Counted from the first letter of the stretch, positions 15,298 to 62,911 are shown. The stretch: DNA of 64,000 bases from Ginglymostoma cirratum (GCA_024137785.1 JAHRHZ010000073.1:5194250-5258249); one strand, 5' to 3'. Notes: generated by a model not told the origin, from the letters alone. Program-made: numbers and translations.

Positions 15298-15409
15298 ATG
15301 GTTTCTAAGGAAATTGGTGCACTTATACTATCGCTGTCTTTGAACCTGGTTTACGGAACAGACTTTATCAGATATGTCTATCCAGCCTATAATATAAAAA
15401 GTTACGGAG
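15298..15409 (+). CDS. col10a1: col10a1 copy 1 first coding exon (exon starts 15291): signal peptide + start of NC2, MVSKEIGALILSLSLNLVYG/TDFIRYVYPAYNIKSYG
   Basis: Acceptor tttttttacattttag|, caacATGg start, donor ggag|gtaagt (phase 1); SLNLVYG resembles mammalian COL10A1 signal end SLNLVHG; paralogous to 62809-62911. Confidence 0.9.
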
Positions 15410-19385: not shown

Positions 19386-21722
19386 ACTTAAGTTGAATAA
19401 ATTAACCCTGCTCAGGTGTTGTCAGCAATTTTTTGAGAGACTAGGATATGCCCGAGTTGCCGGTGGCTTCACTGTGAACCTTCCTATGAACGTCAAGAAA
19501 CTGATGGTTTTGTGCCCTGAATACAAATTAACAGTGACACAGTTATTTCAGGTTGCTTTTACACAGCACAAATCCCTGACATGGTTTTGAATCTTGGAGG
19601 CCTAGGTAAGGAATAACTGAAACCATGGAGGCTCACTATGCTCATCAGATCAAAAATGGCTCATGCAAACTCAAGAACAAAACCTCACCTTCCCTTCTGT
19701 CTCTTTGTACTAATCCATTAATTTTCTTTCCCTTTCTTAAATTGATTTTTCTCTATCTCATTTAATTCAAATTCACTCTCTCTTCCTCTGTCATTCAGTC
19801 CATTTCTTTCCTTTCTTTCAATTTCATTGGCAAGGAGATAGAATATTTGTTGTAATGTTTGAGCTTCCAAATGCACCACTGACCTCAGACTATTGTTACC
19901 AGCTCACAACTTCAACATTTTATGGTGCAATGCTTAAAACATAGAAGTAATCTGAGGAACGATGAGGGGGGCAATGGAATCATGTATTTTTTTTTCCCAA
20001 ATGCACTAACCAAAACAACACCAATGCATTAAAAAAAAAATCAGATGAACTAGAAATTGCAACATATTTTGGCAAAATTTGCTTATGAATGGACCACCCA
20101 TCATATGTAACTTTCTGCTTTGTTATACAGAAACTAATTTTAGTTATAATTAAATTTAAAAGATAATAATTTTAATTTCAAGTTTTTGTTACTAGTAGGA
20201 AACCACAGGAAACAGTTACATAGGTACAAGATCATGAGCATTACACGTGCAGGCATGTAGATGATATTGGCACTTCGATGTCATTAGTTTTTACATGATT
20301 CTGTTGATTATCAGCTGCAGCCCCAGAGATGTTAGCATTAACGCCACTTCTCTAAGAATTCTATTAATCTTCCTAAATTATGATGGACAATCAAGAGAAG
20401 CCCACCTCCTGCAGAATTTCAACCCTTTCTTTCTTTAAGAATTTGTCTAAGGATCTTTGAAGTTTACATCAGTCTTATGATACCAAAATGTCTTTTCTTA
20501 CTTTTGCAAGTTAAGTTGTTCAAAGGATTGAGAGCGCGGTTTTCACTTACTTGATTCGTTTCAGTAATCCTGCACATCGGACAAATTGAATAACTTATTT
20601 TCATCCTGACTTCTTGTGAGCAAAACACGTGGGAGAAGGGGCTAATGAAAGGTGACACTTTCAGTCCAACCTGGTACGAGTTGACTTTCGACAGGTTATT
20701 TTTACCTGATGCAGCGATGCTTATATTATCTAATGAAATATAGGAACCAGTGTTGATATTGTGATACTGAAGTATCCAACAGACATTTATTTCAGATAAT
20801 TGCATACAAACATTATATTTACAGGAACAACGTCTGAGCTACAATTAAGCTAATAGTTACAATATAGCAGCATGGTTTCAATAGCACTATGCATCAAGTG
20901 ATCCAAGATGGACTATAAGATATTCAAAGCCTCAGATCACATGCTAAAATAGTGATGTCATCTCTTCAAAATTCCCCCCTCAGAATCATAACACAACATA
21001 ACCAATGCAACTTACGCTGAAATAATCTGACAACTGTGACAAGCTGACCTTTCACATTTCGACAATCAACCAAAGAGAGGAAATGTTGGAAAACTGGTAA
21101 AGGAAGCATTTCCTTTGTACATCCGGATGTCACCAGCTTTAATCTCAAGCTGCACCTGAAGGCCCATCTGACATTCCTCAGGGTTCAGTCAGCTCTATCA
21201 AGAGTGGTACCTCTGAGTCAATCTCGGGATAAACACTGAAGTATCCCACCCAAAGTATATTCTATCCCCTGCTGTCCTTCGTACTCCTTCCAGTGGTGTT
21301 TATCATGGAGGAATAAAACTGTTACCTGTTTGTTTAGTGTGTTACTTGGAACAGGAGATGCAAATTACAGTTTAAATTTACAGCAATTGAAATGCTCAGA
21401 AATTTCTACAGTTTGTTGGACAATCTACAGGCCATATTCATATTGCTAAATGTTTGTTCCTGGATTTTGAAGCTAAGTTTCCGTAAAATTCACTTAAGAA
21501 CTAGTTCCTTGCTGTATTACGCTTTAACTCAGCTTTTGCCACACTTTAACTGAATCAAATAATTCTACTAGCATAATCTGTTTTACCGCACTCTCAATGT
21601 TAAACTGAGAAACTCAAAGAACAATGGCATTCCTTCCAATGCTTTTGATGATCATTACCGCACTTCTACAAGGTAAAAAATACAGATTTAGACATTAACT
21701 CATTTTGTTTTTCCTAAACTAG

Positions 21723-28515: not shown

Positions 28516-29029
28516 GTATGCTCTTTTTAATAATAAGTTTCATTCAATATTCACATTAATTACGGTTATGTGAGCTATACAAATACTTTATAGCTGCTCC
28601 TTAAGTTCAAAAATTCAACTTACAGTCTTTGAAGATGGCTTAAAATCTTTATATCAAAATCTTGCATAAAACACAAAAACGTCAGAGCGATAATAATGTT
28701 TATTATTATTTTCCAAAACAGGTTATCAAATAAAAGGGAAATACTCGTGGAGGATTGATGACAATGGGCAAAATGGCGACTCAAATTCCGCAAGTATGCA
28801 AGATTTAAGCTTAACATGTATGACAGGTTTATTTATCCAAGAAATAAGCACCTTTACACTCACTGTTAAAAGCTCCAATTATCAAAGTTTGATATGAAAT
28901 CAGAAGAGCTAACTCGAGAAACCCACTACATATTGTCATTCTCTTGCCATAAATATGACAGGAGCATAGTAGAAGTAATGAAAAATAAGTCAGATCTTTC
29001 TTGTTACAGGTCTGTAAAAACCACAACAT

Positions 29030-29480
29030 ATAGAAAGCAGAATCAGGCCATTCGACTCATCAAGTCCGCTCTGCCATTTGATCAAAGCTAATACGTTTCT
29101 TAACCCCATTCTCCTGCCTTCTTCCTGTAATCTTTGATCCCCATACTGATCAAGAACTTCCGTTTCTCTGTCGTAAAAATACTCAGTTACTTGCCTCCAC
29201 AGCTTTTCGGAGCAATGAGTTCCACAAATTCACCAGTTTCTAGCTGAAAAAAAAATCATCCTTCTATCATCCCAGCATTTCTAGCCACAGGGAGCTGTGG
29301 GGCAGGTTTTATATATAAGGCTAAGATAGATAGATTCTTGATCAGGAGGAGAATCAAGGGTTACAGGCAAGAGCAGGAAAGTGGGCATGAAGATTGTTGG
29401 ATCAGCCATGCTCTTAATGAATGGTGAAGCAGATTTGACGGGCCAAATGGCCTACTCTAGCTCCTATTTCTTCTGGTCTC
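29030..29480. mobile_element. Two LINE 3' ends in inverted orientation (29030-29260 minus, 29290-29480 plus)
   Basis: Both match the CR1-type tail family; partly reverse-complementary. Confidence 0.6.
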
Positions 29481-29694
29481 TAGGTGGATTTCTTTGCAGT
29501 GAAATGTTGCCAAGTACTTTGATGCTTGATTTGCAGTACCAAAATTCAGGTCCAAACCTGGGTCCTTGCATTTACTCTCCAAATGACCCAATAGAGTCTA
29601 TGCATACATATAGAGTTAGGCTGCTAGAAGCAACAGTTGTTCAGATAAAACTGGCTAGCATTGTTTTTCCTGATTCCTTCAGATTTTATTTACC

Positions 29695-30017
29695 AGGGAG
29701 GCAGTAGCCTATTATAGCTGGACTTTTAATCTAGAGGCTCAGGTAAAGTTCTGGGGACCAGTGTTCAAATCCCCAATAGCAGATGGTGGAATTTGAATTC
29801 AACAAAGGCAATCTGGAATTAAGACTCTATTGATGACCATGAAACCAATGACAAGAAGGAATCCATCGGGTTCACGAACATCCTTTCGGGAAGGAAAATG
29901 CTATCCTTTTCTGATCTGGCCTAAATGTGACTACAGACCTGCAGCATTCACCCTTAACTGTCCTCTGGGGAATAAATAATTGCCTAGCCAGCGACGTTCA
30001 CATTCCATCAATGAATC
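29695..30017 (+). mobile_element. tRNA-head SINE (DeuSINE-like)
   Basis: Homologous to 23233-23572. Confidence 0.65.
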
Positions 30018-32270
30018 ACTGAAAAGGTTTGCAACTGATTGGATTATTTAGAGCTGATGAGCTTGAAGAACCCCTATGTATGTCACAGTGGATGTTAGAT
30101 GCATTACTCAATTCACCAAAGCATTCGCGACAGAGGAATTGTATCTTCTGATGACTTAAATAATAGAATTGAAAAATTACAATAGAGATGGAGAAACAAT
30201 TCAGGTACTTACACATTACCAATTTAACACACAATGTAAACAAGTTGCTGGAAACTAATCAGTGACACAGCAACTAAATACTTGGACAAATATCAGTGAA
30301 TGGTAGATCAAAGTCTGATTGACTACTTTTAATGATGTTAAGAGCATGGTGGATTAGGAGATACGATGATGCAAACAGATCAATAACAAATGAGAGAACA
30401 GAATCAGAAATAGCTACGTGTTCAGTATCAGCAACTAGCTGAGAGATAGAAGACAGAGATCAAGGAAATCACCTCTGTAGCCACTGATATCAGCAAGTTG
30501 GAACCTGGAGGCCATGAATTCACCCATGAGAAACCTAGGCCATGCGTGCCCGCTCAACAAACTTGCTTGTGGCTCATCAAAAAATGAATTCTACTGAAGA
30601 AAAGTACAACACAAGTACTATTTAAAAGTCTAGAGACCTAACATAAAAGTAATCTAGATGACAATTTCTGTACAGATTTTCTTGAAGTACAGTCCAGTAT
30701 TTTTGGAGATGTGGGTGCCGAGTTATCTAACAGGGCAGCAAGTGTTGCTGTATCTTCACAGGGAAGGTGGACAATTTTGTGATCTGTTTCCACAAGGGTG
30801 CAACAGGTAGGTTTGGGGGTGAAGAGAGAGGGAGAGAGGAATCTACAGTGCAATACCTTTGGGTGAAGAGGGGATGGAGATAATCGTAGATTGGTTTTGG
30901 AAAGTGACCATTCCGGCCATCATCTTTGCAGCAGCAACCGAGACCCACTTCCCCGCCTTTATCTCCAAATATTTCCCTTTCACGTAATGATCCAACTCAT
31001 TTAAAAGTCATATTTGAATTTGACTATATAATAATTTCAGACCCCAATGAATTGCTCGCAAATGGTTTCTTCTGCTGTTATCACTCCCCTTAAATCAGTG
31101 TCCTCTGGTTATCGATCCGTCTCCAATGAGAAGCGTTTTTGTCCAGAAACCTCAGCTTCATTAATCTATCTGCCAATATGCCAGTAACAGTCAAGTCAAT
31201 GTTTTGTACACGCTTAATATCCTTGCTGCGAGTGTGAAAGCTCTGTACAGTGCCTACAATCAAACTGGAGCTCGATTCATCCATACTCCTAGTTAGTGAC
31301 AGGAGACTGTCTAGAATGTAAGTCAATGCATCCAGCAGCTTGGTATATATTGTCAATTTTCTCCTGCTAACCACCTCATTGAGGTCCTCTGTGATTGTGC
31401 GCTGGCTGTATCTATTCTTTCCTCAGGTCTGGCAGCAGCTCACACAGGTTTAGTGACTCAACCTGCTTTGATCCTAACTCCTCACTAGCCCCTAAAATGC
31501 ATTCAATGCTGATATCTGAGCAGGTGGCTTCCAGTGTCAGATCAAGTGATGAGGCCTTTTATCAGCATTGTGGCATTACTATTTCTCTTCCTGCTGGGCA
31601 CGTGGTAGTTCCTGGATTTCTGAAAACAGAAAATCAAAGAAAAGGGCTGAGTGGAAAACAACAGATCCATGGTCACTCAATAACTACTTATAGATCATGC
31701 CAGATTTGAACTGGGAGCTCAGAAATAAATGAATATACTGTCATCTTAATGTCCATTTGTAGCACAGTCAAGACACAAAGGACACAGATTTAAGGTAATT
31801 AGCAAGAGAAGCTGAAGTGGCATGGGGAAATAATTGTTTGAAAACTGAATTCGTGATTAAAATTGGAATGCCCTACCTGAAAAAGGGAGGTGAACTAGAT
31901 TCAATTGTGTTGTTCAAAAGAATGTTGTTTAGCACCTGAAGGCAAAGAAATTGCAGGGATGTGGAACACGGTACTAGTTAAGTGAGGCTAGGTAATTTTT
32001 TATTCCAGAGAACCAGCTAGGACTCTTTTGATTCTATAATTCTACATGAAAAATTAATAAAAGGTTTCCTTGAATAACTTGCAAAGAAAACAGGGAAGAA
32101 TAACCACGCTATTCACACGCTCCCTCTGGTTAGCAAAATTCAAGCCACAGTACAAAATAACTCTACACCATAATTTTTACTACTCCCTTTAACCAATCAT
32201 TTAATAAGCAGTTAACTTCGCCTTGGACCAATATATAAAAACTAATAAACGTGGATAGCAAAGGCTAGAA

Positions 32271-32552
32271 AGGCGGCATGGTGGTTAGCACTGCTGCCTC
32301 ACAGTGCCAGGGACCCGGGTTTGATTCCAGCCTCGGGCGACTGTGTAGAGTTTGCACATTCTCCCCCTGTCTGCATGGGTTTCCTCTCACAGTCCAAAGA
32401 TGTGCAGGTTAGGTGGACTGGCCATGCTAAATTGCCCATAGCATCTAGGATGGGAAATGGAGGGATAGGGTAGGGGTTGGTCCAGGTGGGATGCTTTTCG
32501 GAACGTCAGTGTAGGCCAAATGGCCTGCTTCTACACTATAGAGATTCTATGA
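32271..32552 (+). mobile_element. HE1-like V-SINE
   Basis: tRNA head ggcggcatggtggttagcactgctgcctcacagtgccagggacccgggtttgattcc, V-domain gagtttgcacattctcccc...gatgtgcaggttaggtgga, CR1-type tail ...gattctatga. Confidence 0.8.
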
Positions 32553-32601
32553 ACAGTAAACATAGTGTGGCAAAAGATCATTCCAAGTACTTTAAATCAT
32601 A

Positions 32602-32720
32602 TTTTCTAAGGATTTGGATTAGATTTGTAGCTTGGGTTGTGGATGTTGAGGTTGGTTGGCTCGCCAAGCTGGTTCGTTGCGGAACATCAACAAACCAGCT
32701 CGGCAAGCCAACCAATTTCA
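32602..32720. mobile_element. Short hairpin insertion with aatcata direct repeat
   Basis: ttgaggttggttggctcgccaagctggtt / aaccagctcggcaagccaaccaatttcaa inverted; aatcata at 32595-32601 and 32720-32726. Confidence 0.55.
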
Positions 32721-34809
32721 ATCATACTTATATGTCACATTCATTACAATGTAATGAAACAAAATGTTACTTACTTCTAAGATCCTGATTAATACAAGAT
32801 ATTGTGCACAGGCTAATAGCTTACAACATCCCTATTTTCATGACTTGTAATTCCCTGCAGTTTTCTGAAAGTATTTTTCAGCTTCATATCAATTGCTGGT
32901 TCTTGACATATGTTCTATCAGGCTTAAATTTTTATACATTACCAACTTTAGTTAAAACTCTTTAAATCTATTTTGTATGTATGGAAAAACTAAACAGAAA
33001 GCTAATCCCAGCAACTAAATAAGCTATTTAAATTTAACCCATTTTGTAAACAGAAAATCTATCAACAAAAGGAATGGTTAATATGGAATAAATTGTTGTG
33101 GTACATCTGGCATGAATCAAACATGTTCTCAGTAGTGAAGTCTTCTCTACTCAATAGTTTACTTCATACAAATTGTCAACATGAATCTGCTATAAATTGT
33201 TATCTTTATCAATTCTCTCAGAGGAATGCCTCATGATCAGCTACACATTCCTTTCTAATGTCCTTTAGTGCCTCCCATCTTCCTGCTCTTGTATCTATAC
33301 ATTTCATGCTTGAACACTTCCAGTCTACCTTCTTCACTTTCACATCCAGCAAACAGCCTTTTTTCAAAATCCTCTCTAGTGTCATCTATGATGATGACCA
33401 GTAATACTTTCTTTCCTCGTCCACTTTTGTGACATCCTCCTTCAATGAACTGTGGCATTTAAGAAAGAACTTGCATTGATCTGACATTTTGTCAGAGCCT
33501 CAGGATATCAGAATGTGCTTCACACCCACTGAAGAACACTTGATGTGTTATCACTTAGATAAATTAGAGGAAAACTGTAGCCAAGTTGATTTCAGCAAAG
33601 TCCCATACAGTGAGAAAAAAAAATCACAATCTGTTCTACTCATATTTGTCAAATTGATACAAAAAAGTCCATGAAATTGGGAAAACTCAAATTCCTGTTT
33701 CTCAGAAAGCTTTAGTATAATGTTCATCTAAAAGGTGTCATCTCCAGCCTGATCATTATGCTTGTAAGGCACAATAATTTCCAGTAGATGTCAGTGTCTA
33801 GCAATGGGAACACGGCACAATGTTCTCGCTTTGCCTGTAGGACAAACTGTAACAACTATTTTTCTATTTGGAATGGGAACTTACTAATTTAGCAGAGATA
33901 GTTGCTAACCCCTATCACTAGGTATATTTACTCATAATTTAATTGCCTATAATTTTGTTCTTAAAAGTTAGTTTGAAGATTGATATGCAAGATCAATCTA
34001 ATTTCATTTTTAGTTTCTTTTTCTACAACACTAAATAAAGCTTGGTATCCACAGCAATTTCTCAAATCATTCCAATATCTGCTCAGAAATGCTTTTTATA
34101 CCAGTTCAAGTTTCAAAATAAGCCATTTCAAAATCCATGTTGCATTAGCTTTTCTGTGCATACAGTTGCTGCCCTTGAGCTTCTTTCCAGCAGTCCTGAG
34201 CAGCAAAGAGCTTCAATATAGGTGTCAAAAAAATTGAATGCAAGTTCACGTGAGATCAAGTTGGCATAGGGGGAATTTTTTTTCCCCATTTTGTTTCAAT
34301 TCCAGTTATGGAATCTTATATACCCATAGCACACAAACATTCAGAGATACATTTCCTGTTATTTTTAAAACATCAGAAAAATAGACATATCTAAACAAAC
34401 AGAAGCAAAAAAAATTTGAAATGCTCTACACTGCCAAGGAAAAAGTATTTTTTATTGCAACATCTATACACCTAAATTGTCAATAATAACACAAGCATAA
34501 AATAGCATCAGCACATGTTTACAAAAGGTACTTTATTACCCAGATTAAATACATGGCTATTTATGGACCGTCAGTTGCACACAGTTCACATATAAGTTGA
34601 CAACTTGAGTTTTGAGTTCAGCCTTTTGAGTGATATGAAAGATTGTACTTGACTAGCATAATTTTCTGTACAATAAACCCATCTCAATAAAGTCATGATG
34701 TGTGAAAATACACATTTGTTTACTTTGGCAGGAAAAATAGAAAAGCTTAATACTATTCACATGGAGAGATTGCAGGGCTTGGTGGTACAGAGGGATTTCC
34801 AGAAAACCG

Positions 34810-35460
34810 ATCATGATAAAAATTAGTATACAGGTATGCAGCAACTGTTCAAAGGCATTGAGAATGCCGGTGCCAATTGGAAAAACCGAATATAGAAATA
34901 GGGAAATTTTTTACAGTTGTGCAGGGCCTTCAGACCACATCTGCAGTACTGCATACATTTCTGGTTTTCTTCCTTGAAAATCGCTTACATAGTGGTTCTG
35001 AAAAGGTTCATTCAACAAATTTGAGATGAAGGACTTTTCCTAGGAAGAAAACTTGAACAGACTGGGGTTAAACTCACTTCTAGTTTAAAGGAATGAGAGG
35101 TGAACTTATTGAATCATTTACAATCTTGAGGGGAGTCTATCGGGAAGATACAGAGGATATTCCCTCTTCCGGGGGAGACTAGAATCAGAGGACACAGTTT
35201 AAGAACAGGAGATCCCCTTTAAGGCAGTGACGAGTAAGGAACATTTTCCAGAAAACGTTAGTCTATGGAAGACTCCTCCCTAAAAGTAGTAGTAGCTTGG
35301 TCATGGAATTTATTCAAAGCAGAGTTAGATGGACTTATGATAGACAAGGAAATCAAGGGTTTTGGGAACAGACAGGAAACTGGAATTGTAACCACATGAA
35401 AACCAGCCACGATTTCGTAAAATGGTGAAGGCGGCTCAAACGGCCAAATAGCCTCTGAAT
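34810..35460 (+). mobile_element. Decayed CR1-type LINE 3' fragment
   Basis: agaccacatctgcagtactgcatacatttctgg (RPHL.YC..FW) and tail similarity. Confidence 0.7.
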
Positions 35461-35995
35461 AAAGGGAAAATTGCAAAGTGACTCAGCAAAAATCACTGGT
35501 GCACATCTTAGTGTTTGGTCATAATCACAAAGGAGCAAAACAAGAATCCTTGAAGAAGCTTGTTTATTCAATGTCACCAATAGGAAAGGGCATGGCTGGA
35601 CGAGATCTCAGAAGAGACCAATACAGCCTACGAAGCACTAAAATAACCAAAACAGAAATTATACTTGTTTTCCTCACTTATATGTTTCCTGCTCACCAAA
35701 AACAATCGGTAAATCATTCTGATTAACAGGAAACACCAATGTGTTTCCAACCACACACAAGCAAAAAGCTTTTCAATTTTAATAATTTAAAGCTATCATT
35801 CACAAAGAAACAAGCTTTTGTTGTCTATATATAATAGACCTGACAATTAAAAGCGCTGCTGGGGTTTATAATTTATAACCATTTTTAAAACTTATGAAAG
35901 TATTTATTTCAGGTTTTATCTGTTGACTGCAATGTACTTTAAGCAAAAGTGCTTGAAAAAATTCAATGAGGTTAATTTTGTCTTTCTATAAACAG

Positions 35996-36067
35996 GTCAT
36001 GAAACAAAAGGACAATATTCACAAAGGTCTTCTGAAGAAAATGAACAGAATGGTCATTCCAATTCTG
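35996..36067 (+). CDS. col10a1: col10a1 copy 1 mini-exon C (72 nt): (S)HETKGQYSQRSSEENEQNGHSNS
   Basis: Acceptor ttttgtctttctataaacag|; clear paralogue of D/E; the homologous donor reads ctaaat, and a weaker in-phase GT (tctg|gtacta) lies 3 nt upstream. Confidence 0.55.
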
Positions 36068-36494
36068 GTACTAAATAACAAGTCACTTTATTTGTCCTTT
36101 CAGAACACAGGCACACTTCAAATTTAGCAATGGGACAAAGACAGTTTCTTTGTAAAAGTAGTGAACTTGTGCACAATAAATGCAGAATTAAGGGCCATGC
36201 GCTGTTAACCTAAATGCTGAGCATTCAAAACTCAAAGCAAACTGTGAAACTGGACTGAGTTAACCCAGATTGTGAAAAACTAAATGGGTCATTATATTGA
36301 GTTGGAAACAGCAGACTACCATCCTTTATCAGTCTGGCATACAGGTGTATCCAGTTGTTATACTACATGGTTGACTTTTAATTTTCAGTGAAGTGGTCGA
36401 GCATGTCAGCCACTCAATTAGCAATGAGTATTTGCTACAGAAATTAGCAATAATATTGGATGGTCAGATGAACACTAGCCTTGTCACCATAATA

Positions 36495-36634
36495 AAGAAC
36501 TGCAGGTGCTGGAAATCTGAAACAAAAACAAACTCAGGTCTGGAAGCATCTGTGGAGAGAAAGCAAACCTAATGTTAACTGAGTCTTTCTGCACAGATGC
36601 TGCCAGATCTGCTGTGTTTCTCCAGCAATGTCTA
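36495..36634. mobile_element. Palindromic Penelope-like insert with ~16-bp TSD
   Basis: ccttgtcaccataata 36479-36494 / ccttgtcaccacaata 36635-36650. Confidence 0.7.
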
Positions 36635-36950
36635 CCTTGTCACCACAATAGACAGTGCAGCAATCTTACAGCAGTCAGCCTGGAAAAAGTCTGACAGCTG
36701 GTAACCCGGTTGGGAGACTAGCACACCAGGGTTACAAAAACTAATTCAATGCCTGGTTTAAATCTGTTAATTGGAGTAGATAGACAACAGTTACAAGTAT
36801 ATTTAAAATTTCCAAGTGTAAAACTCATGATAAATTATGCTTCATCAGCAATTTTATGTTTTAATTTAAGAATCTTACTTTAAGTAGTGCACATTAACAA
36901 ATACTAAAACTAAAAAGCGAATACATTTATTTTGTGTACTTCCCAAACAG

Positions 36951-37028
36951 GTCAACAGGAGAAGGGACAATACCCGAGAAGATCATCTTCTGAAGAAAAT
37001 CAACAGAATGGTCACTCTAATTCTGGCA
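36951..37028 (+). CDS. col10a1: col10a1 copy 1 mini-exon D (78 nt): (G/S)QQEKGQYPRRSSSEENQQNGHSNSG
   Basis: Acceptor tttgtgtacttcccaaacag|, donor ggca|gtgagc, phase 1-1; 61/78 nt identical to exon E. Confidence 0.85.
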
Positions 37029-37439
37029 GTGAGCAAAAAATCCTTTTATTTCTGTAGAATAAAGTTGTTCTTTACTGGCTCGTGCAAATTACAAGTTCAT
37101 CAATGGTGTGAAGAAGCTTTCACTTAATTGCATGGAATAAACATGGAGTTGTGCTAATCAAAGTGTTGACTTCAAATCCTCTTTGGAAGAGTTGCCCTTC
37201 AGGAATGCATATTGAAAATAATTCAATGTCTAGCTTAAAATCTATTAATTAGAACAGACAGACAACAGTTACAACATATATTTAAAATTCCCTTCTGTAA
37301 AATCCACAATACAGACAATTAGTTCCTGGTGAAAGTTTTATTTTCAATTAGAATTATTGCTTTTATCATGCAATATTAATAAATGATCAAACTAAGAAGA
37401 GGATTCATCATGTTTGATTTTATTGTATATTCAAAATAG

Positions 37440-37517
37440 GCCAACAGATCAAGGGACAGTATTCAAGGAGATCATCTTCTGAAGAAAATCAACAGAATAG
37501 CGATGCCAATTCTACCA
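37440..37517 (+). CDS. col10a1: col10a1 copy 1 mini-exon E (78 nt): (S)QQIKGQYSRRSSSEENQQNSDANST
   Basis: Acceptor tattgtatattcaaaatag|, donor acca|gtaagc, phase 1-1; synonymous differences versus D. Confidence 0.85.
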
Positions 37518-37937: not shown

Positions 37938-38033
37938 GCGATGAAAGTAATGGCCACGATTTAGAAGACATTGTGGAGAACAATAACTCAGATTTTTCTT
38001 CCTCTTCTTCCTCCTCCTCCTCTTCTTCTTCAG
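37938..38033 (+). CDS. col10a1: col10a1 copy 1 mini-exon F (96 nt): (S)DESNGHDLEDIVENNNSDFSSSSSSSSSSSS
   Basis: Acceptor tttatttttactaaaacag|, strong donor tcag|gtgagc, phase 1-1; splices in frame to EEEYGEPG. Confidence 0.85.
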
Positions 38034-39662
38034 GTGAGCTGTATGTAATTATCATATGCAGAACAGCAGAGTTCGAAAATACTATCAAGACCATATGAAC
38101 AAGAAAATCTATTTTTAATGCCCTTTCTCTACATATTAACTTGGAATACAGGTCTGATCAGCTATTTCATTATGGAAACTTGTCAAGATTCGGCTGGTCA
38201 TTTTGGCAAAACAATCAATATTCAACCACTTTATATTTCAGTTGTGTTTTGAGCATGGTGTTCAACCACTCAGGAACCACATTTTCTTGCAAACATTGGA
38301 AAAGATCAGAGATATGGAAGTAAGACAATTAATACTTCAAAGTAAAATAAATAGTTAAAACTAACAGTCCAATTGAAGTTATGAAGCTGCATTAAAAAAT
38401 TAAAAGAAATTAAACAAAAAGACAAATTTTTTTGCCAAACATTTTATTTGTATAACATAGGTTTAAATGTTTAAAACAATATACAGTAAACAGGCAGGTG
38501 TAGTGGGCTGTGAAGAAAAGTTTTTTCAAGACCAGACACAGACGGAACCAGACCTGCAAGTGAGTAGACAAATAAGTCACGGCAAAGTGGTCAGAGTGGC
38601 GTTATTTGTGATTGAGATCTGCCTTAGTAGTCTCTTGATTTAGAATAATGAATTTCATTTCACATGGATCCCTCAGTACTCCGTGCAAATTTTTACCGAT
38701 TTTAAAATATTGAGCTAACTACGGAGTTTTTACTGCTATTCTCTCCCCATAAAATTCTAATACAAAATAATCATAATGAGGCTAAAAGACCCATCTCACT
38801 TCTGGCATAGTCCAGCTATGGTCATAAATGTGTCAGAACTGAAATATAGTGTATCACAGCATTATAATGGTTGAGTGTAAAGGTCAGAGCTTCTACCAGA
38901 CCAGAACAAGACAACTGAGAAATACCTTATTAAAGCTGTAAGATTCCCTGTTTCCAGATGCTGAAAGGCCAGCTGGTTCAATTGCCTAAGTATGCTCAAT
39001 GGCATATATCTTTCCTGCTTGGGTTCCATGCCTACATAGAGACTTGGACTGTCCTTGGAAAATACACACATACATAAAAACATATATACTTGTTTCCTTA
39101 CAAAACAGGCTACAAGGACATTTAGTTTTCCTTTCCAGGGATGCAAGCATTTCACCTCTTTCCTGCTCACCTGTAATTCCTGCACCACCCCCAACTTCCT
39201 AGCAGTGACTGGCCAAATTTCCTGACTCGGACTGGATTTAAATGCCTCAGGTGTACCCCAATTCTGTGAAGACAGGAAAACCACTCCCAGCCAAGCCATT
39301 AATGTCCACCAGGGTTACTAGCAGAGGAATTCAATTCTTTCCTTCCTAAAATTAGAAGTGTTTTAATATAATCAGATCCTATTACTTGTATTCTAACGAT
39401 ACTACATCATCAGATACTCCTGAGCTTTAAAATGATACGTGAAATAATATTTCACCAGCCTTTCTTATCAGAAAGGGAACAGAAGAGCACTTCTTCCCTC
39501 GTGACAATGGCTTTGGTCACCTGAGGTATTTTGTGTAGTATAGATAGACTAGTGCAAACAAAAAAAATAATAGAATTCAATTCTTGCTGGAATACAACAT
39601 ATAGTGCACACTAATTGCATTCTAACACAACAACCTGAATGGCATTTATTTATTTTTAACAG

Positions 39663-41497
39663 AAGAAGAGTATGGAGAGCCAGGTCCACCAGGTCCACCT
39701 GGATTACCAGGACCAATTGGTCCACCAGGATACCCAGGAAAGCCAGGGTTTGGGCTGCCAGGTCATCCTGGTAAGCCTGGACCACCCGGACCACAAGGAC
39801 TATCAGCTATTGGAAAACCAGGCGGCCCAGGAGAACCAGGAAAGCCAGGTGTGCCAGGGTCTCCTGGCCGAAAAGGGGATAAGGGATCTCAGGGGATGCA
39901 AGGACCTAGAGGACCTCCAGGACCTAGTGGACCACCCGGACCAGCTGGGTTATCTGTTATTGGGAAACCAGGACCTAAAGGATCACCAGGTCCTCCAGGA
40001 ACACTTGGATTTCCTGGAAGAAAAGGGGATCCAGGATACCCTGGTTTACCAGGACCAAAAGGAGATAAAGGTGTTGGAATTCCAGGACGTCCTGGTGATA
40101 AAGGTGCTCCAGGACCACGTGGTCCACAAGGACCACCTGGTCCAGAAGGTAAAGGACTCAAAGGACCCCCAGGTCACAAAGGTGAACCAGGACACAAAGG
40201 TGAAAAGGGATCACCAGGGTCCCCTGGGCATCCAGGTAAGCCAGGCCAAGATGGTCCACCAGGACCACCTGGTAAAGATGGAATTGGGAGGCCTGGAATA
40301 CAGGGACCACGAGGAGTTCCTGGAATGAAGGGTCACCCTGGTCTGCAAGGTTTGCCAGGTTCACCTGGGTTGCCAGGTGTCGGAAAGCCAGGCCTTCCAG
40401 GACTCAAAGGACACCCAGGTTCTCCTGGATTGACGGGAAAGCCTGGAGATAAAGGAGAGAAAGGATCATCTGGAGAACCTGGACCTCGCGGGCCTGTAGG
40501 ACCACCTGGGTCACCAGGACCAAAAGGCCCAAAAGGTCCACCAGGTAATGTTGGTGCACCAGGAGAGAAAGGTCATCCAGGACTAAGGGGTCCAGAAGGG
40601 CCTTCTGGGCCAAAAGGTGAGCCAGGATCAAAAGGTGAGCAAGGAAAACCCGGGCCTCCAGGAAAGTCAGGTGCAGAGGGTAAAAAAGGAGGACCAGGTC
40701 CATCTGGTGAAAAAGGTGATAAAGGGCCTGTTGGGCCACGTGGCAAAGCAGGGAGTCCAGGTCCTCAAGGTCCTCAAGGGCCACAAGGGCCTCCAGGTAA
40801 ACCTGGAGAGAAAGGACATCCTGGATTACCTGGTTCAGTAGGTCTAACCGGGAGTCCAGGTTCTCCAGGACACCCAGGAGTGAAAGGAGATCCTGGGGTC
40901 CCAGGACCACCGGGTCCTCAGAGTAAATTTAATGCAAAAATCATAAAGGGGCCAAGTGGTCCACCTGGACCAAAAGGAGCAATTGGTCCACCAGGCATTC
41001 CAGGAGCCCCTGGTCCAGCAGGTCCACCGGGAGAAATTATTATACCAAAAGGAAAATATGCAGGTTATAGTGGTTACATCGATTCAGGTGGCGTGGTGAG
41101 TCCTGTTCCAGCATTCACAGCCATTCTTTCTCAGCCATATCCTCACAAAGGGCAACCAATAGTGTTTGACAAGATACTGACCAATTCAAATAACAACTAT
41201 GATTCATCAAAGGGAATTTTCACATGTGAAATATCTGGTATCTACCAATTTTTTTATCATGTACATGTTAAGGAAGCAAATGTTTGGGTGGCATTATATA
41301 AAAATGATGAACCTGTAATGTACACGTATGATGAATATACACCACAATACGTTGACCATGCATCAGGAACAGCTATCTTACATTTGGATGAAAATGACAA
41401 AGTATATGTACAATTACCTGCAGAAAAGTCTAATGGTGTGTACTCTTCTGAATATATGTATTCATCATTTTCTGGGTTGTTAATAACACCATCATGA
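39663..41497 (+). CDS. col10a1: col10a1 copy 1 terminal exon: Gly-X-Y triple helix with imperfections + C1q (NC1) domain
   Basis: Acceptor tttatttttaacag|, phase 1; helix start [22 protein letters not shown] is co-linear with COL10A1; NC1 [26 protein letters not shown] fits type X better than type VIII; helix and NC1 in one exon. Confidence 0.93.
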
Positions 41498-62808: not shown

Positions 62809-62911
62809 ATGGTTTCAAAACAAATCACTGTGTTTCTGTTATTGCTTACACTGAACGTGATCCATGGAATGGGATACAATGCCGCACATCAACGTTGGAA
62901 AGGTCATGGTG
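62809..62911 (+). CDS. col10a1: col10a1 copy 2 first coding exon (exon starts 62794): MVSKQITVFLLLLTLNVIHG/MGYNAAHQRWKGHG; the rest of the gene lies outside the window
   Basis: Acceptor ttcactctttacag|, Kozak aaccATGg, donor ggtg|gtaagt phase 1; LLLLTLNVIHG resembles mammalian COL10A1 LLLVSLNLVHG; MVSK start shared with copy 1. Confidence 0.85.

Follow-up and report, generated by a model that had tools for sequence, protein, structure and literature searches.

The run of 12 serines encoded at 37997–38032 of the window (the whole 64,000-nucleotide stretch of Ginglymostoma cirratum DNA analyzed here, numbered from its first letter) forms the end of the Col10a1.5 SE domain nearest the helix, Col10a1.5 being a type X collagen of tooth and scale odontoblasts. 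Comparison of orthologous protein sequences identifies the conserved unit as a serine run followed by one or two glutamates, S(n)-E(E). On balance it is probable that this tract is phosphorylated, binds Ca2+, and regulates dentine mineralization.

The gene was assembled as an 825-aa frame without stops from nine coding exons having canonical splice sites, comprising an ATG at 15298, seven mini-exons of 63–96 nt, and a terminal exon (39663–41497) that carries both PF01391 and PF00386; the coding introns of Col10a1.5 are all in phase 1 (8/8). The SE domain spans 181 residues with 26.5% S, 11% E, and 6% D. Four mini-exons within 28722–37517 are alike including their intron flanks (73–82%, blastn) and constitute a tandem duplication family, whereas the Ser12 mini-exon gave no blastn match to the other mini-exons of the gene. 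The features are as follows, with residue identities given relative to the NCBI horn-shark model P0004.

15298–15409, plus strand: signal-peptide exon of Col10a1.5, coding portion; 37 codons and one further nt, donor in phase 1; 34/37 identical to P0004
21723–21794, plus strand: SE-domain mini-exon 1; 72 nt, phase 1-1; 21/24 identical to P0004
28453–28515, plus strand: SE-domain mini-exon 2; 63 nt, phase 1-1; 15/21 identical to P0004
28722–28793, plus strand: SE-domain mini-exon 3; 72 nt, belongs to the family of tandemly duplicated exons; 15/24 identical to P0004
35996–36067, plus strand: SE-domain mini-exon 4; 72 nt, SSEE; 20/24 identical to P0004
36951–37028, plus strand: SE-domain mini-exon 5; 78 nt, RR-SSSEE; 23/26 identical to P0004
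37440–37517, plus strand: SE-domain mini-exon 6; 78 nt, RR-SSSEE; 22/26 identical to P0004
37938–38033, plus strand: last (7th) mini-exon; 96 nt, acidic stretch and then Ser12; 26/32 identical to P0004
37997–38032, plus strand: Ser12 tract; 6 TCT, 5 TCC, 1 TCA
38034–39662, plus strand: phase-1 intron after the Ser12 exon; GTGAGC ... TTTTAACAG, with a branch-point-like CTAAC at 39622
39663–39673, plus strand: opening codons of the terminal exon; Glu (its codon divided as G/AA), Glu, Glu, Tyr; a tandem acceptor, CAG-AAG-AAG, is also located here
39674–41038, plus strand: triple-helical domain; 455 aa, 8 interruptions, net charge +30
41111–41485, plus strand: C1q (NC1) trimerization domain; Pfam PF00386, E 5e-34; the stop codon ends at 41497
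62809–62911, plus strand: signal-peptide exon of Col10a1.6, the next tandem paralogue; agrees with the last residues of the published whale-shark alignment row; the remainder of the gene lies beyond the window

The exon at 37938–38033 has a clean acceptor (taaaacag) and a near-consensus donor (CAG/gtgagc), and it closes with 12 consecutive TCN codons followed by a single G, as had been claimed in an earlier sequence-only reading of this DNA. The letter F assigned to the exon in that reading denotes a sixth mini-exon and is superseded by the present count, in which the Ser12 exon is the seventh. No other run of at least five TCN codons occurs on either strand of the 64-kb window. TCY codons account for 11/12 of the tract and for 31/79 of the gene's other Ser codons (rough P of 3e-4), a bias that fits an origin by slippage. 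The TCT/TCC run, described earlier as microsatellite-like, is an impure repeat with at most four perfect units in its longest stretch (TRF score 52); the Ser count is the same, 12, in the window and in the published whale-shark row. The last mini-exon is found in all three elasmobranch rows of the published alignment (PMC6759074 supplement). The longest plus-strand pyrimidine run of the window, 39 nt at 37993–38031, contains the Ser12 tract and is followed by AG/GTGAG (region 37993–38039), an arrangement that resembles a recursive-splice signal; skipping of the exon stays in frame.

The terminal exon opens at 39663 (ttttaacag/AA GAA GAG TAT GGA), and the join 38033>39663 yields S12-EEE-Y. From the sequence we infer that this splicing takes place in the nurse shark (Ginglymostoma cirratum). 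The direct join postulated in the sequence-only reading agrees with the thornback-ray Trinity transcriptome assembly, in which (PMC6759074 supplement) the Ser tract runs straight into EE-RN-GEPGPP, and with P0004, in which the Ser tract is joined directly to the helix exon and all seven mini-exons are present in unchanged order. Suppl. Fig. 3 also has a catshark row, but this exceeds the listed 1235-nt transcript in length and for that reason was not taken as cDNA proof. The same reading placed EEE at the start of the triple helix; the codons do open the terminal exon, but EEE-Y just precedes the helix, whose first Gly-X-Y is at 39674. Two other junctions were considered and rejected. The published whale-shark model separates Ser12 from Glu by an insert of ∼40 residues, which, when the same acceptor is used, reaches a stop after 4 codons in the window and is therefore best read as a prediction error, and retention of the intron after Ser12 leads to a stop 21 codons further on. 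At the tandem acceptor CAG-AAG-AAG (39660–39668), the in-frame alternatives 39666 and 39669 would lose one or two Glu.

Sequence features identify the gene as chondrichthyan Col10a1.5, a type X collagen. In type X collagens a signal peptide precedes a short-chain helix that measures about 460 aa and is interrupted about 8 times, and helix and C1q share one terminal exon; in the window gene a signal peptide is likewise present, and the helix runs to 455 aa, is interrupted 8 times, and shares the terminal exon with C1q. Chondrichthyan Col10a1.5 is expected to lie in intron 6 of Nt5dc1, in a cluster that exceeds the 64-kb window; the window gene is fixed as.5 by gene order because the Col10a1.6 signal exon comes next at 62809. 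Helix and C1q together are identical to horn-shark.5 at 523/607 positions, and identity to the whale-shark.5 row is about 99% by eye, which places the source of the window very close to the whale shark. Elasmobranchs have six tandem Col10a1 genes, and the Col10a1.5 described by Debiais-Thibaud et al. (2019; PMC6759074) and the window gene are alike in having a signal peptide, SE domain, helix, and C1q, followed by Col10a1.6. The composition of the window SE domain falls inside the ranges published for Col10a1.5 (21–31% S, 10–12% E, 5–8% D; PMC6759074). Relative to the visible whale-shark row of Suppl. Fig. 3, the window differs by ∼9 substitutions and one missing triplet (by eye) and has the same last mini-exon with 12 Ser, whereas the published whale-shark model is without three of the seven mini-exons, has EEQ instead of the window's EEE, and has its Ser12/Glu junction broken by the insert.

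Database searches recovered few relatives. Searching with the C1q region among near lengths gave 3 matches in 343 candidates, none from a shark; the SE region of P0004 matched none of 8000 candidates; among longer lengths the single match in 2725 was P0004 itself, which was also the one clear shark Col10a1 model among the best 150 HMMER matches. In NCBI this 2324-aa horn-shark model fuses Col10a1.5, Col10a1.6, and retrotransposon-like sequence under the label 'collagen alpha-2(IV) chain-like', a mis-annotation that conceals Col10a1 genes in databases.

With acidic SCPP/SIBLING proteins (DMP1, DPP, MEPE-ASARM) and elasmobranch Scpp/Sparc-L, Col10a1.5 shares secretion, an S/E/D-rich composition with many S-x-E sites, small duplicated exons, odontode expression, and the status of putative FAM20C substrate, but it is fused to a collagen X helix and C1q and sits in the Col10a1 cluster, not at sparc-L. 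Its acidic composition with S-x-E sites is that of an SCPP. The mostly phase-0 introns of scpp genes (PMC9122587) differ from the 8/8 phase-1 introns found here, and an origin from the sparc-L 5' exons without collagen or C1q is at variance with the Collagen and C1q domains present. Col10a1.5 therefore resembles SCPP/SIBLING proteins by convergence and is not a member of the family. Pfam matched none of four single short N-terminal exons, so that the published DMP1-superfamily annotation was not reproduced at single-exon level.

Six orthologues were compared at the protein level: the window, whale shark, horn shark, catshark, thornback ray, and elephant shark. The Ser run measures 12 in the window, 12 in whale shark, 11 in horn shark, 9 in catshark, 2+TT+5 in ray, and 5 in elephant shark, all in frame, although a transcript origin is clear for the ray row only and the frame is imposed by the gene models. 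The expectation that tract length would vary is borne out between species, in whole codons and at the protein level (5–12 Ser in six orthologues). Repeat lengths in other than multiples of 3, which would have counted against the earlier proposal, were not encountered, all six being in frame; this check is weak because gene models enforce frame. A Ser run with Glu directly before the helix is present in 6/6 orthologues from sharks, ray, and chimaera, once the mis-predicted insert of the whale-shark row is set aside; these lineages split 352–447 Ma ago (PMC6759074), and the elephant-shark prediction, as far as visible, has three separate S(n)-EE clusters (S9, S7, S5). The four residues before the first Gly-X-Y are EEEY in the window, EEQY in whale shark, EQQY in horn shark, EEHY in catshark, EERN in ray, and EEVS in elephant shark; Glu1 is thus kept in 6/6, Glu2 in 5/6, and Glu3 in 1/6. 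EEE as a conserved unit finds no support: Glu3 is found in a single orthologue and contributes nothing to S-x-E priming, and the horn-shark sequence has just one Glu.

At the same four positions other paralogues have THYC (.1), RWYR (.2), RDVG (.4), and GIKR (.6), read by eye from translations of the catshark riboprobes and, for.6, from P0004,.3 not being visible. A Glu cluster at the helix start is therefore present in 0/4 other paralogues with a visible N-terminus, in the comparison of first terminal-exon codons that the sequence-only reading had proposed, and Glu at the helix start appears, from these sequences, specific to.5. The suggestion that EEE in the ancestral terminal exon was co-adapted with the new exon survives in the modest form that Glu at this position appears.5-specific, but not with EEE as the unit conserved. 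Short acidic S-x-E segments also precede the helix in.2,.4, and.6, indicating that the acidic head is a cluster-wide trait amplified in.5.

The canonical FAM20C motif, given in the sequence-only reading as S-x-pS, is S-x-E/pS (PMC7422707, PMC7948968). By the strict rule 12/12 tract serines of the window are marked whether Glu3 is present or not; with one Glu every second serine is marked, 6/12, or 5/11 in horn shark. Two Glu are enough for propagation, and Glu3 has no part in priming. The mature N-domain has 12 direct S-x-E sites (13 listed, one in the signal peptide) and 32 when S-x-pS propagation is included, and the Ser12 tract supplies 12 of the 32 predicted sites of the SE domain. In two separate studies, fam20C is expressed in catshark odontoblasts (PMC9122587), as is Col10a1.5, concentrated in secretory odontoblasts (PMC6759074). 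The window protein is thus secreted, contains the S-x-E/pS motif, and has a co-expressed kinase, the co-expression being taken from these catshark papers and not from nurse shark. Because kinase and collagen occur in the same catshark cells, the tract is, by analogy, likely phosphorylated. FAM20C is also reported to act outside its motif, on all nine MEPE ASARM serines and on Glu-free phosvitin stretches (PMC7422707, PMC7948968), so that phosphorylation of the tract need not depend on the glutamates and, by the same analogy, Glu priming may be dispensable. Phosvitin polyserine and the Spp2 serine stretch are likewise uninterrupted serine runs modified, or predicted to be modified, by FAM20C; the Ser12 tract differs in comprising only 12 residues, in having at its end an S-x-E site that splicing creates at the junction, and in being attached to a trimeric rod. 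For shark collagen X, the literature searched, mostly without subscription papers, yielded neither phosphoproteomic nor biochemical nor knockout data.

In the proposed mechanism, FAM20C in the Golgi would first phosphorylate the two serines nearest Glu1 and Glu2 (S-x-E) and then proceed back along the run (S-x-pS), or alternatively might treat the run as polyserine of the phosvitin type. Once C1q had trimerized the chains, a basic rod of 455 residues would carry as many as three flexible phosphoserine tracts tethered to one of its ends; by binding Ca2+ and clusters of calcium phosphate, these tracts would regulate dentine mineralization. The functional unit would be a casein/SIBLING-like S(n)-E(E) cluster tolerating lengths of 5–12, with neither exactly 12 Ser nor EEE required. 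The 36 phosphoserines in register envisaged in the sequence-only reading are a ceiling only, as that number presumes a homotrimer, full occupancy, and an ordered tract. Four Col10a1 paralogues are co-expressed in odontoblasts (PMC6759074), and the.5 and.6 helices are similar in length (455 vs 452 aa) and in the pattern and spacing of interruptions; with shared odontoblasts and similar helices, heterotrimers could lower the count to 12–24. Lying outside the helix, the tracts of a trimer probably form a flexible brush and not a registered lattice. Two further observations count against the model: Col10a1.5 is weakly expressed in the lower jaw, at 5 TPM in catshark and 8 TPM in ray, where Col10a1.4 reaches 110 and 92 (PMC6759074), and horn shark has a single Glu, which by the strict rule leaves 5/11 serines marked.

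The tract would more likely promote mineralization than inhibit it, because it would be immobilized in the matrix. The opposite effect of a phosphorylated tract, in which it acts as an inhibitor or a stabilizer of amorphous calcium phosphate in the manner of casein phosphopeptides or ASARM, perhaps freed as soluble peptides at RR sites, is considered rather unlikely. RR-SSSEE is present in two of the seven mini-exons, and SSSEE resembles the casein cluster motif; Ser12, however, is C-terminal to both RR sites, so that cleavage there leaves the tract on the collagen, and these sites lack the upstream Arg of a canonical furin motif. Growth of mineral, including hydroxyapatite, is inhibited by phospho-ASARM, by phosphorylated full-length DMP1, and by free DPP at high concentration (PMC2798077, PMC8036283, PMC7422707), which by analogy would count against a nucleator. 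Immobilization nonetheless favors nucleation in DPP, which speeds apatite nucleation when immobilized and phosphorylated but not when free or dephosphorylated (PMC2798077).

A primarily structural function is improbable, in which network assembly is driven by binding of a polyanionic head to the strongly basic helix of adjacent molecules, or to cationic matrix of another kind, with mineral binding secondary. The charges invite such a reading, the SE domain having −18 before any phosphate against +30 for the helix (+32 and +28 for the horn-shark.5 and.6 helices), yet the Col10a1.6 helix is equally basic (+28) though its visible acidic head is short, and the expression site of.5, together with its DMP1-like composition, points toward dentine mineral. 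Equally improbable is the reading that trinucleotide slippage has inflated the run into a flexible and nearly neutral spacer, in which neither the length nor the following glutamates matter much for function. The TCY-biased codons, the range of 5–12 Ser in six orthologues, the two Thr that break the ray run, and the variability of Glu2 and Glu3 speak for it; the persistence of a Ser run with Glu at this position in 6/6 orthologues speaks against it, as do the S9, S7, and S5 of the elephant-shark prediction, each with EE, and the present impurity of the repeat (at most four perfect units) argues that the run is maintained as serine and not as a DNA repeat. It is very improbable that the pyrimidine run is mainly a splicing signal, a recursive-splice-like (Y)39-AG/GTGAG by which the exon is removed in frame and many transcripts are left without the Ser tract: only 1 of 1970 plus-strand YAG sites has at least 29/30 upstream pyrimidines, compared with 16–21 at the gene's real acceptors, and skipping keeps the frame, but the exon is conserved as coding sequence (26/32 identical to horn shark) and is contained in the ray transcript, whose Thr codons would break the pyrimidine run.

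A bolder version of the phosphorylated-tract model is offered tentatively, as possible but doubtful. In cartilaginous fish, tandem duplication of a phase-1 SSEE mini-exon and Glu substitutions in the opening codons of the helix exon would have made a FAM20C site at a splice junction and so a dentine nucleator built into collagen, the phosphoserine brush on the trimer end doing in cis what DPP and DMP1 do in trans in bony vertebrates. The charge would be tuned between species and dentine types by how long the tract is, how many Glu follow it, and which splice variants arise through the tandem acceptor or exon skipping.

The feature is known in substance, the Ser run, the domain, and the dentine hypothesis all being in print. 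The SE domain, its likeness to DMP1, and the proposed convergence with dentine SCPPs were published in 2019, and the 12-Ser run is already visible in the whale-shark row of Suppl. Fig. 3 (PMC6759074). The main text of PMC6759074 contains no match for 'phosphoryl', 'Fam20', 'microsatellite', or 'polyserine', and its 'exon' passages concern synteny only. Relevant literature on shark Col10a1.5 found in the search, mostly without subscription papers, consists of PMC6759074 and a 2026 study of catshark Spp2 (PMC13188829). Three points appear undescribed in the literature searched and are increments on a known feature: the arrangement in seven mini-exons, the S(n)-E(E) site created at the junction, and the mechanism by which the kinase would act. 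No new gene or domain is added; the 2019 proposal is made concretely testable, in one short region and with a named kinase in the same cells. Shark dentine mineralizes without an odontoblast protein of DSPP/DMP1 type, for which the SE domain was proposed in 2019 as a substitute, and in the natural series S12-EEE, S11-E, S9-EE, and S5-EE the dependence of phosphate load and mineral induction on Glu priming and on the length of the tract could be examined. Should the model prove true, the protein would unite a collagen and a phosphoprotein nucleator in one covalent chain.

Several minor observations concern the remainder of the window. A 100-N assembly gap at 362–461, with a G run before it, is distant from the Ser12 tract. 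An extra mini-exon near 31630 was rejected, being without a flanking donor and absent from the horn-shark tblastn. Two intronic stretches are used as exons in the published whale-shark prediction: 38461–38560 is out of frame in the window, and 19567–19605 has plausible splice sites, yet is absent from the horn-shark model. In the mini-exons at 36951–37028 and 37440–37517 RR stands directly before SSSEE, and K-G-Q/K-Y opens four mini-exons, so that cleavage or cross-link sites are possible. A catshark Col10a1.2 riboprobe, read by eye, encodes a similar Q-I-x-G...SSEEN segment, and for this reason the SSEE mini-exon module may predate Col10a1.5.
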